A stretch of DNA of 64,000 bases from Giardia intestinalis (taxonomy: Eukaryota). The notes beneath the pieces are model-generated. The model saw only the letters and a program-made list of their open reading frames with translations. It did not search any database and had not been told where the DNA came from. Position numbers and translations under genes: made by a program. The DNA is taken from NCBI GenBank assembly GCA_000002435.2, contig CM018792.1; one strand, 5' to 3'. This document shows, one piece after another, positions 39,047 through 39,168 of this stretch (the first letter of the stretch is position 1; the number at the start of each line of letters is the position of its first letter).

Positions 39047-39168
39047 TCCTCCCTCAGCCTTTGTACATATCTCACTCCACTATCATACTATCACACGCTA
39101 TCACCCATTATCACCCTCTATCACACATTATCACCCATTATCATCACTCATAGCATTCACTACCTAAG
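39047..39168. repeat. 122-bp inter-unit spacer made of degenerate 9-10 bp TATCAC(N)3-4 (minus strand TGATA) repeats
   Basis: CTCACTCCACTATCATACTATCACACGCTATCACCCATTATCACCCTCTATCACACATTATCACCCATTATCATCACTCATAGCATTCACTACCTAAGTCACGCC. The same 122-bp spacer, with 1-2 substitutions, lies at 42841-42962, 44787-44908, 46604-46725, 48550-48671, 50367-50488, 55903-56024 and 63549-63670. Confidence 0.85.

Follow-up and report, generated by a model that had tools for sequence, protein, structure and literature searches.

A degenerate 10-bp repeat at the junctions of silent VSP cassettes in assemblage A Giardia is probably a minisatellite remnant

What lies between the units of a silent VSP array in Giardia intestinalis, and does the repeat found there have a task of its own or is it merely carried along with the units? 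We addressed this in a window of 64,000 nt (the whole stretch of DNA that was analysed), which belongs to the 2020 long-read assembly of G. intestinalis WB, assemblage AI; four of its flanking proteins are exact matches to KAE8304444, KAE8304445 and KAE8304459 (G. intestinalis ATCC 50803, WB C6). Between 35.4 and 64 kb, all 16 minus-strand frames end in ...CRGKA-stop, with the stops 1.78–1.97 kb apart. These ends are the signature C-terminus of VSPs, and the region, whose junctions a preliminary description of the window had recognised as those of a VSP array, is a known kind of "linear array" of VSP pseudogenes: the units lie head to tail, each with a TM domain, CRGKA and a stop, and a poly(A) signal follows (ACTTAGGTAGTGAATGC after 15 of the stops, ACTCAGGTAGTAAACGC after the last). 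The array contains at least 16 units and runs off the window at 64000, while at the other end, past the last unit (which stops at 35444), comes unique sequence without the repeat. The parts needed first are these:

35444–64000, minus strand: head-to-tail linear array of VSP pseudogene units, marked by 16 CRGKA-stop ends
37223–39046, minus strand: body of unit U14, type A, with no ATG near its start and no signal peptide
39169–41013, minus strand: body of U13, the type C unit upstream, with a CRGKA-stop end

The PyAATGTT initiator (YAATGTT) was found nowhere in the array (35–64 kb), and no unit has a nearby ATG or a signal peptide, the latter judged by alignment to intact VSPs, which have about 90 additional N-terminal residues including the signal peptide. 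Instead, the unit frames open directly after the stop with WSEICT... or WVICT..., and the first Met mostly comes at residue 77–349. Three units combine the missing start with internal frameshifts or stops (U05, 54420–56024; U03, 58374–59867; U02, 60204–61715; all minus strand) and are pseudogenes in the strict sense; the other units keep 575–653 codons open. This silent state, without ATG, signal peptide or initiator and with three units frameshifted, agrees with what Adam 2010 (PMC2996952) and Xu 2020 (PMC7000408) report for such arrays. The first of these places over half of the WB vsp genes in linear arrays with spacers of 60 bp on average (range 0–241), and the closed stretches between our units, which measure 12, 33, 53 or 89 nt, fall within that range. 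As exact sequences, the array units were absent from the protein collection searched, where the best relative of one unit was 66% identical, and this absence fits annotation as pseudogenes.

The C-terminal 390 aa of U06 (52396–53565, minus strand) are 100% identical to 'Variant-specific surface protein S6' (Q8I8W3, P0133); should that entry go back to a cDNA, then transcripts come from a cassette of this silent array or from an identical copy located elsewhere. In U04 (57051–57986, minus strand) the first 312 residues of XP_001703902.1 (P0062, from the old WB annotation) are found exactly before the two diverge, with 80% identity overall; P0062 may be a paralogue from a different array, or the 2007 assembly may have collapsed two genes into a chimera. 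Away from the VSP units, a tRNA gene lies at 26922–26994 (minus strand; RF00005, 66 bits), and it was the only match in an Rfam scan of the whole window.

The junction between U13 and U14 had been delimited as a 122-bp spacer, and junctions of this kind had been said to consist of repeats only. Read on the coding (minus) strand, 39047–39168 is CTTAGGTAGTGAATGCTATGAG TGATGATAAT GGGTGATAAT GTGTGATAGA GGGTGATAAT GGGTGATAGC GTGTGATAGT GTATGATAGT GGAGTGAGATATGTACAAAGGCTGAGGGAGGA, and it falls into three parts:

39047–39168, minus strand: the 122-bp spacer as earlier delimited, comprising the poly(A) signal, the repeat tract and the first, open codons of the following unit
39153–39171, minus strand: U13 stop codon TGA (39169–39171) and extended VSP poly(A) signal ACTTAGGTAGTGAATGC (39153–39169), by direct reading
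39080–39146, minus strand: degenerate tandem repeat of about 67 nt, about 6.7 copies of period 10 with a last spacing of 8, by TRF and spacing
39047–39079, minus strand: open 5' end of U14, WSEICTKAEGG, encoded by TGG AGT GAG ATA TGT ACA AAG GCT GAG GGA GGA

The A of the stop codon (39169) and the first 16 nt of the spacer (39153–39168) together form the 17-nt sequence ACUUAGRUAGURAAYRY, which is the extended VSP poly(A) signal given in a 2022 preprint (bioRxiv 10.1101/2022.03.07.483299); the focal signal also matches the 15-nt VSP poly(A) signal cited in PMC1762436. At the other end, the last 33 nt are open and encode WSEICTKAEGG, homologous to the ...PGSEICTKA... that follows closely on the first GGCY motif in intact VSPs. 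The earlier boundary at 39047 directly precedes GTG (39046), the first start that an ORF finder would choose. The repeat tract itself ends in a TAG (39080–39082) that closes the frame of the next unit, and the truly closed stretch of the focal junction is thus 89 nt, 39080–39168; the claim that it is repeat throughout has to be given up for both of its ends.

Across the array, a junction runs from CRGKA-stop through the extended poly(A) signal and a lead-in of 5–10 nt to (GKGTGATARW)n, with n between about 1 and 7, and then to the remnant 5' end of the next cassette. The consensus GKGTGATARW on the coding strand (WYTATCACMC on the plus strand) was derived from 47 ten-mers. Where the next cassette begins can be read by comparison with intact VSPs, whose layout is a signal peptide, about 90 residues, ...CGKCGDGYFLFMGGCYK..PGSEICTKA... 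and the remainder (P0059, P0063). Long-form unit starts set in at ...LLFMGGCY and are found at the junction after the stop at 57999, at a junction in the DH assembly (assemblage AII, AHGT01000001) and in the head of an ENA metagenome contig, L011. Short-form starts lie about 65 nt further in, at ...EICT, in the 122-, 67-, 59- and 36-bp spacer classes and in a second ENA metagenome contig, L010; in these short forms the final repeat runs directly into GA(GA)TATGCAC.

The repeat is real by several measures. TRF gave a period of 10 with 5.7 copies and 78–82% matches at each of the nine 122-bp sites; the arrays that it reported for the 59- and 67-bp sites are shorter (78–87% matches overall). The spacings of TGATA in the focal tract are 10, 10, 10, 10, 10 and 8, and its seven cores fall within 89 nt, a frequency that a 5-mer reached in 8 of 20,000 shuffles. 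Window-wide, the count of GTGATAR is 87, where dinucleotide shuffles give 17.8 ± 4.4 and none of 100 reached 87, and the 35 kb outside the array hold only 5 matches. All coordinates given earlier for the 122-bp class and for the 36-, 59- and 67-bp spacers proved correct; the list nevertheless omitted the junction after 57999 and a ninth 122-bp spacer at 59746–59867, the latter overlooked because the unit that follows is frameshifted and has no long ORF. There are thus nine spacers of the 122-bp class, five other junctions with 2–5 repeats, and six distinct junction sequences among the 15 junctions of the window:

42875–42938, minus strand: repeat tract of a 122-bp spacer, 7 TGATA cores, by TRF
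44821–44884, 46638–46701, 48584–48647, 50401–50464, 55937–56000, 59780–59843 and 63583–63646, minus strand: the other tracts of the 122-bp class
59746–59867, minus strand: ninth 122-bp spacer, absent from the earlier list, followed by a frameshifted unit
52328–52366 and 54145–54183, minus strand: tracts of the 59-bp class with four TGATA cores, of which the final one merges into coding GATATGCAC
37181–37196 and 41008–41023, minus strand: tracts of the 36-bp class, 2 TGATA cores
61643–61689, minus strand: tract of the 67-bp class, 5 TGATA cores at spacings of 10, 8, 10 and 13, by TRF
57935–57976, minus strand: long junction variant with two in-frame GTGATA hexamer pairs (SDSDS...GDSDS), then MRLLFMGGCY

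The long variant is the least deleted form of the unit 5' end. Here, after the stop at 57999, the GTGATA hexamer repeat lies in frame inside a 653-aa ORF (MLYSDSDSAMWCGGDSDSMRLLFMGGCY).

That the spacer supplies stops, another point of the preliminary description, is borne out by the 122-bp class, in which the coding strand carries 21 stops, seven in each frame, and the other strand two. One could therefore imagine a barrier selected to block read-through or re-initiation between cassettes, with the 10-bp period maintained for the sake of the stops; the 59- and 67-bp classes, too, close all three frames. Yet one frame stays open in the 36-bp class, and in the long variant an open frame crosses the junction from 12 nt past the previous stop onwards, two findings that make a selected barrier unlikely. 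Moreover, the upstream unit is already brought to an end by its CRGKA stop and poly(A) signal, and cassettes without start codon or initiator would offer little translation to block. We regard this reading as very improbable indeed. A period of 10 is a multiple of three plus one, so TGA, TAG and TAA rotate through all three frames as a by-product. On the opposite strand, identical plus-strand ORFs of 274 codons span four junctions (42658–43482, 46421–47245, 50184–51008 and 55720–56544); the reverse complement of the repeat is nearly stop-free (2 stops in 122 nt), and these antisense ORFs are most likely spurious.

How did the junctions come to differ in length, and how did they come to be so similar within a class? 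U07 and U13 have bodies that are 99.95% identical, and their junctions are 20 nt, exactly two repeats, apart. Although this is one clear pair only, the difference is direct evidence of whole-repeat gain or loss, and it fits the earlier proposal that slippage or unequal exchange underlies the length variation. The similarity within classes points elsewhere. Type A units are 99.85–100% identical to one another (this holds for the U14 body against the units ending at 42963 and 46726), and a 3,749-nt block of two units, one of type B and one of type A together with their junctions, is duplicated with 99.84% identity at a shift of 3,763 nt (42832–50343, minus strand), which shows very recent amplification, or homogenisation, of unit pairs. 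The nine 122-bp copies comprise two sequence variants that are one SNP apart; they are not independent events, having been copied along with the units. Taken together, the six junction sequences, the one-SNP variants of the 122-bp class and the 3.76-kb duplication point to passive co-amplification, each junction variant being copied when whole units or unit pairs duplicate.

Exchange between units goes beyond whole-unit copying, as several units have in common only the 5' 1,475–1,591 nt or only the 3' 1,530 nt. It is conceivable that the junction takes an active part: some 130 nt of conserved VSP 3' end would join with the poly(A) signal and the GTGATA tract into a block of about 260 bp, some 13% of the unit length, that is shared between variable cassettes and seeds or resolves exchange. 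Unequal crossing-over or gene conversion there would make the array grow, shrink and rearrange, in loose analogy to the 70-bp repeats of silent VSG genes in Trypanosoma brucei. Around the stop, identity between –131 and +131 is indeed 97.7–100% at all nine 122-bp junctions although the adjoining cassettes differ, and many identity blocks end at +17 or at +131 to +199. U10, with about 20 type-A-like codons at the start of a type-B body, is a mosaic in which an exchange endpoint adjoins the junction, so some endpoints do lie there. Adam 2010 (PMC2996952), moreover, proposes array members as recombination cassettes. Against this, all VSPs have conserved C-terminal sequence anyway, which makes up much of the block, and numerous breakpoints fall within units (at 1591, 1475 and 318/340 nt). 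Most identity blocks, whether two cassettes are compared or a cassette and an intact VSP, have their ends inside coding sequence. Exact segments, all lying within coding sequence, of 83 aa are common to cassettes and P0059 (WB chromosome 5), of 225 aa to cassettes and P0058, and of 76 aa to cassettes and the head gene of the DH array (P0056), and all three of these proteins are intact, signal-peptide-bearing VSPs. Finally, arrays of assemblage B exist without the tract, as described below. We consider an exchange-promoting block unlikely, though the conserved block from –131 to +131 and the patch exchange in U10 are compatible with a role in exchange.

We then searched both strands of some 190 kb of Giardia DNA for the repeat, defining a cluster as at least 3 TGATA cores with gaps of at most 14 nt; other WB arrays were sampled through the protein N-termini of the old annotation. 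Every cluster with upstream sequence present starts 25–27 nt after a CRGKA stop, on the coding strand, and two more are found at contig starts, right after a cut VSP of which only the tail of the poly(A) signal is left. In these 190 kb no cluster was seen elsewhere than at VSP junctions; the outcome named in the preliminary description as refuting, a motif frequent genome-wide with no tie to VSP loci, is not what this sample shows. All clusters are from assemblage A, namely WB, DH and the two ENA contigs. The syntenic two-unit array of DH has four repeats, and L010 and L011 have 3–7. The old WB annotation has array members (P0057, P0061, P0062 and P0071) that start with MLYSDSDS..GGDS.. or M..VGDSDS.., starts that are the translated hexamer repeats; at 59–80% identity to the units of the window, these are different genes. 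The combination of poly(A) signal and repeat had 0 matches among the JGI metagenome contigs scanned.

Two of these loci deserve a remark of their own. DH (L008 10001–16705) and the window (32302–37222) have the same downstream flank and the same neighbouring cysteine-rich gene. As the DH assembly shows two VSP units against at least 16 in WB, either the array truly expanded in WB or the 454 assembly collapsed it. L011 holds at 1935–2147 a VSP fragment of 70 aa, C-terminus only (TM domain and CRGKA), that is bordered on both sides by poly(A) signal and GTGATA repeats. The fragment resembles the 224-bp vsp14 described by Adam 2010 (PMC2996952). From its flanks it follows that the junction element accompanies the 3' end upstream of it and is not tied to any one 5' truncation point.

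Outside assemblage A arrays, the picture was different. The motif was absent from the assemblage B (AHHH) array junctions sampled, where the units are truncated elsewhere, starting VNDPAGVSIDSLCRP, and a near-identical, non-repetitive spacer of about 110 nt is found at L005 8311–8420 and L007 1789–1900 (CGTCGATGAAGATTGCAYTATGCAA...); assemblage B arrays thus have a conserved junction sequence of their own. It was also absent from the sampled VSP loci of assemblage E (ACVC), which contained no array junction. No TGATA cluster lies in or upstream of the DH head gene, nor near the intact or singleton VSPs in L006, L009, L012 and L013, a small sample. Because the DH head gene and the sampled intact VSPs have no tract, it cannot serve as 5' homology shared with an expressed gene. 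No result supports the recombination hotspot that the preliminary description had suggested, and three findings speak against an essential role of the repeat: the assemblage B junctions, like the assemblage E loci sampled, are without the motif, the DH head gene and the sampled intact VSPs are without the tract, and most identity blocks have their ends within coding sequence.

The same description had considered the GATA cores as binding sites for a sequence-specific factor, and none of our results supports this. In its wider form, the idea would be that phased GATA/TGATAG cores act in cis, as putative factor sites, by positioning nucleosomes or as a source of small RNA, and silence or insulate the cassettes. 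Such a signal would be in keeping with the strict 10-bp phasing over about 70 bp, the 10-bp alternation of AT-rich and G-rich segments, the constant location behind the poly(A) signal and the marked strand bias (the 122 nt of the coding strand include 5 C). It fits poorly with a copy number that ranges from 1 to 7 and with a tract that is dispensable in assemblage B arrays. The spacer has no stable RNA structure on either strand (z –0.05 to –0.28, not beyond shuffles) and no Rfam match. As a miR2 target the tract does no better than shuffled sequence (duplex –19.1 kcal/mol against a shuffle mean of –18.8), and the published, seed-matched miR2 site spans the end of the CDS and about 10 nt at the beginning of the 3' UTR, which places it in the poly(A) signal portion and not in the repeats. 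The literature examined did not yield a Giardia factor that binds TGATA. A cis-acting signal therefore strikes us as quite improbable, and we found no evidence of a sequence-specific function of the repeat itself.

Several other candidates were tried and rejected. The 122-bp tract has three GGG runs with one loop of 17 nt, and the other classes have 0–1 such runs, which disposes of a G-quadruplex. A telomere-like (TAGGG)n remnant, TAGGGTAGGG with at most 1 mismatch, is absent from the array. An origin from the CxxC-GDG codons upstream of the first GGCY fails since homology starts only at (Y/G)(F/L)LFMGGCY, and the likeness of the repeat to the poly(A) signal (GGTAGTGAATG against GGTGATAATG), judged by eye, was too weak to argue for an origin there.

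The reading that we favour, and hold to be probable, is that the tract is an assemblage-A-specific remnant of a degenerate 10-bp minisatellite in the junctions of 5'-truncated silent VSP cassettes. It would gain and lose whole repeats by slippage or unequal alignment, in part seen directly in U07 and U13, where a whole-unit indel lies between near-identical flanks; its tandem, degenerate units exceed chance, as a minisatellite of the slippage type would lead one to expect. The short forms would have arisen by a further deletion of about 65 nt, when the repeat became fused to the GAGATATGC coding motif at short matches (GATA/AGTG). Speaking against neutrality are the fixed start 25–27 nt after the stop, kept in both AI and AII, and the fact that the tract precedes quite different 5' truncation points, including that of the 70-aa fragment in L011; fixed position and retention could reflect constraint rather than neutrality.

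As to where the minisatellite came from, a gene that was once complete may have left its decayed start in the tract, a thought for which the sequence is suggestive only. The junction lead-in CAATGTGTGATAG resembles the start of an intact VSP, CAATGTTGTTGATAG, with its initiator and Met-Leu-Leu-Ile codons, and the lead-in ACAATGTGTGATAG of several junction types agrees with CAATGTTGTTGATAG at 13 of 15 positions with two 1-nt gaps. The empirical p of this match, computed after the idea arose, is 0.006–0.03 (six junction types, 12,788 background windows), but the 122-bp class gave no signal (p 0.27). In such a scenario a gene start directly after the previous poly(A) signal would have lost its signal-peptide region, and the TGATAG core would then have expanded.

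A bolder proposal deserves mention for what it would entail. The GKGTGATARW tract together with the conserved VSP 3' end might be a cis element, specific to assemblage A, through which silent cassettes pair more readily and undergo unequal exchange or gene conversion; we think this improbable. If true, such an element, directly or via a positioned nucleosome or a bound factor, would drive array expansion and the formation of new mosaic VSPs, and it would be a functional analogue of the trypanosome 70-bp repeats in a parasite whose antigenic switching is currently held to be purely epigenetic or post-transcriptional.

Leaving this proposal aside, the anatomy of the junctions identifies the units of the WB array as one cassette family, truncated at or just after the first GGCY motif, and shows that the long-read assembly contains an array of recent amplification that protein databases lack. 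As a simple landmark specific to assemblage A, the motif is a means by which pseudogene junctions can be found and counted and array size followed between isolates, and it is a defined place to test VSP diversification by recombination. Were the tract to direct exchange, this would bear on whether silent arrays are a working reservoir or debris; nothing here shows that it does, and the practical value is modest.

Compared with known systems, the array is closest to the linear VSP arrays themselves. Like these, it has CRGKA with the extended poly(A) signal, short spacers that contain stops, no initiator, start or signal peptide downstream, and units related by duplication and segmental exchange; it differs in size, with at least 16 units in the window against the 10 resolved in 2010 (PMC2996952). 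There, downstream array members without an initiator are proposed to be silent recombination cassettes or debris, and VSP pseudogene arrays are also treated in Xu et al. 2020 for G. intestinalis (PMC7000408) and in Xu et al. 2020 for G. muris (PMC7641422). The junction repeat is not mentioned in the accessible parts of these three papers or of the 2022 preprint on the cysteine-rich family, and literal searches for the repeat sequence returned no paper. The motif is thus absent from the literature searched and is a new descriptive detail inside a known system.

The 70-bp repeats of T. brucei are a second point of comparison, being likewise degenerate, strand-asymmetric, variable in copy number and located immediately upstream of silent antigen cassettes. 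They also lie upstream of the expressed VSG and mark the 5' limit of conversion, whereas the Giardia intact VSPs and array head gene that we sampled are without the tract and the exchanged segments have internal boundaries. With slippage minisatellites, finally, the tract has in common its tandem degenerate units, its whole-unit indels, its confinement to one lineage and its lack of structure or coding capacity. Unlike these, it is bound to one context, 25–27 nt after a VSP stop wherever upstream sequence is present, and it spreads mainly by the duplication of units of 1.8–1.95 kb.
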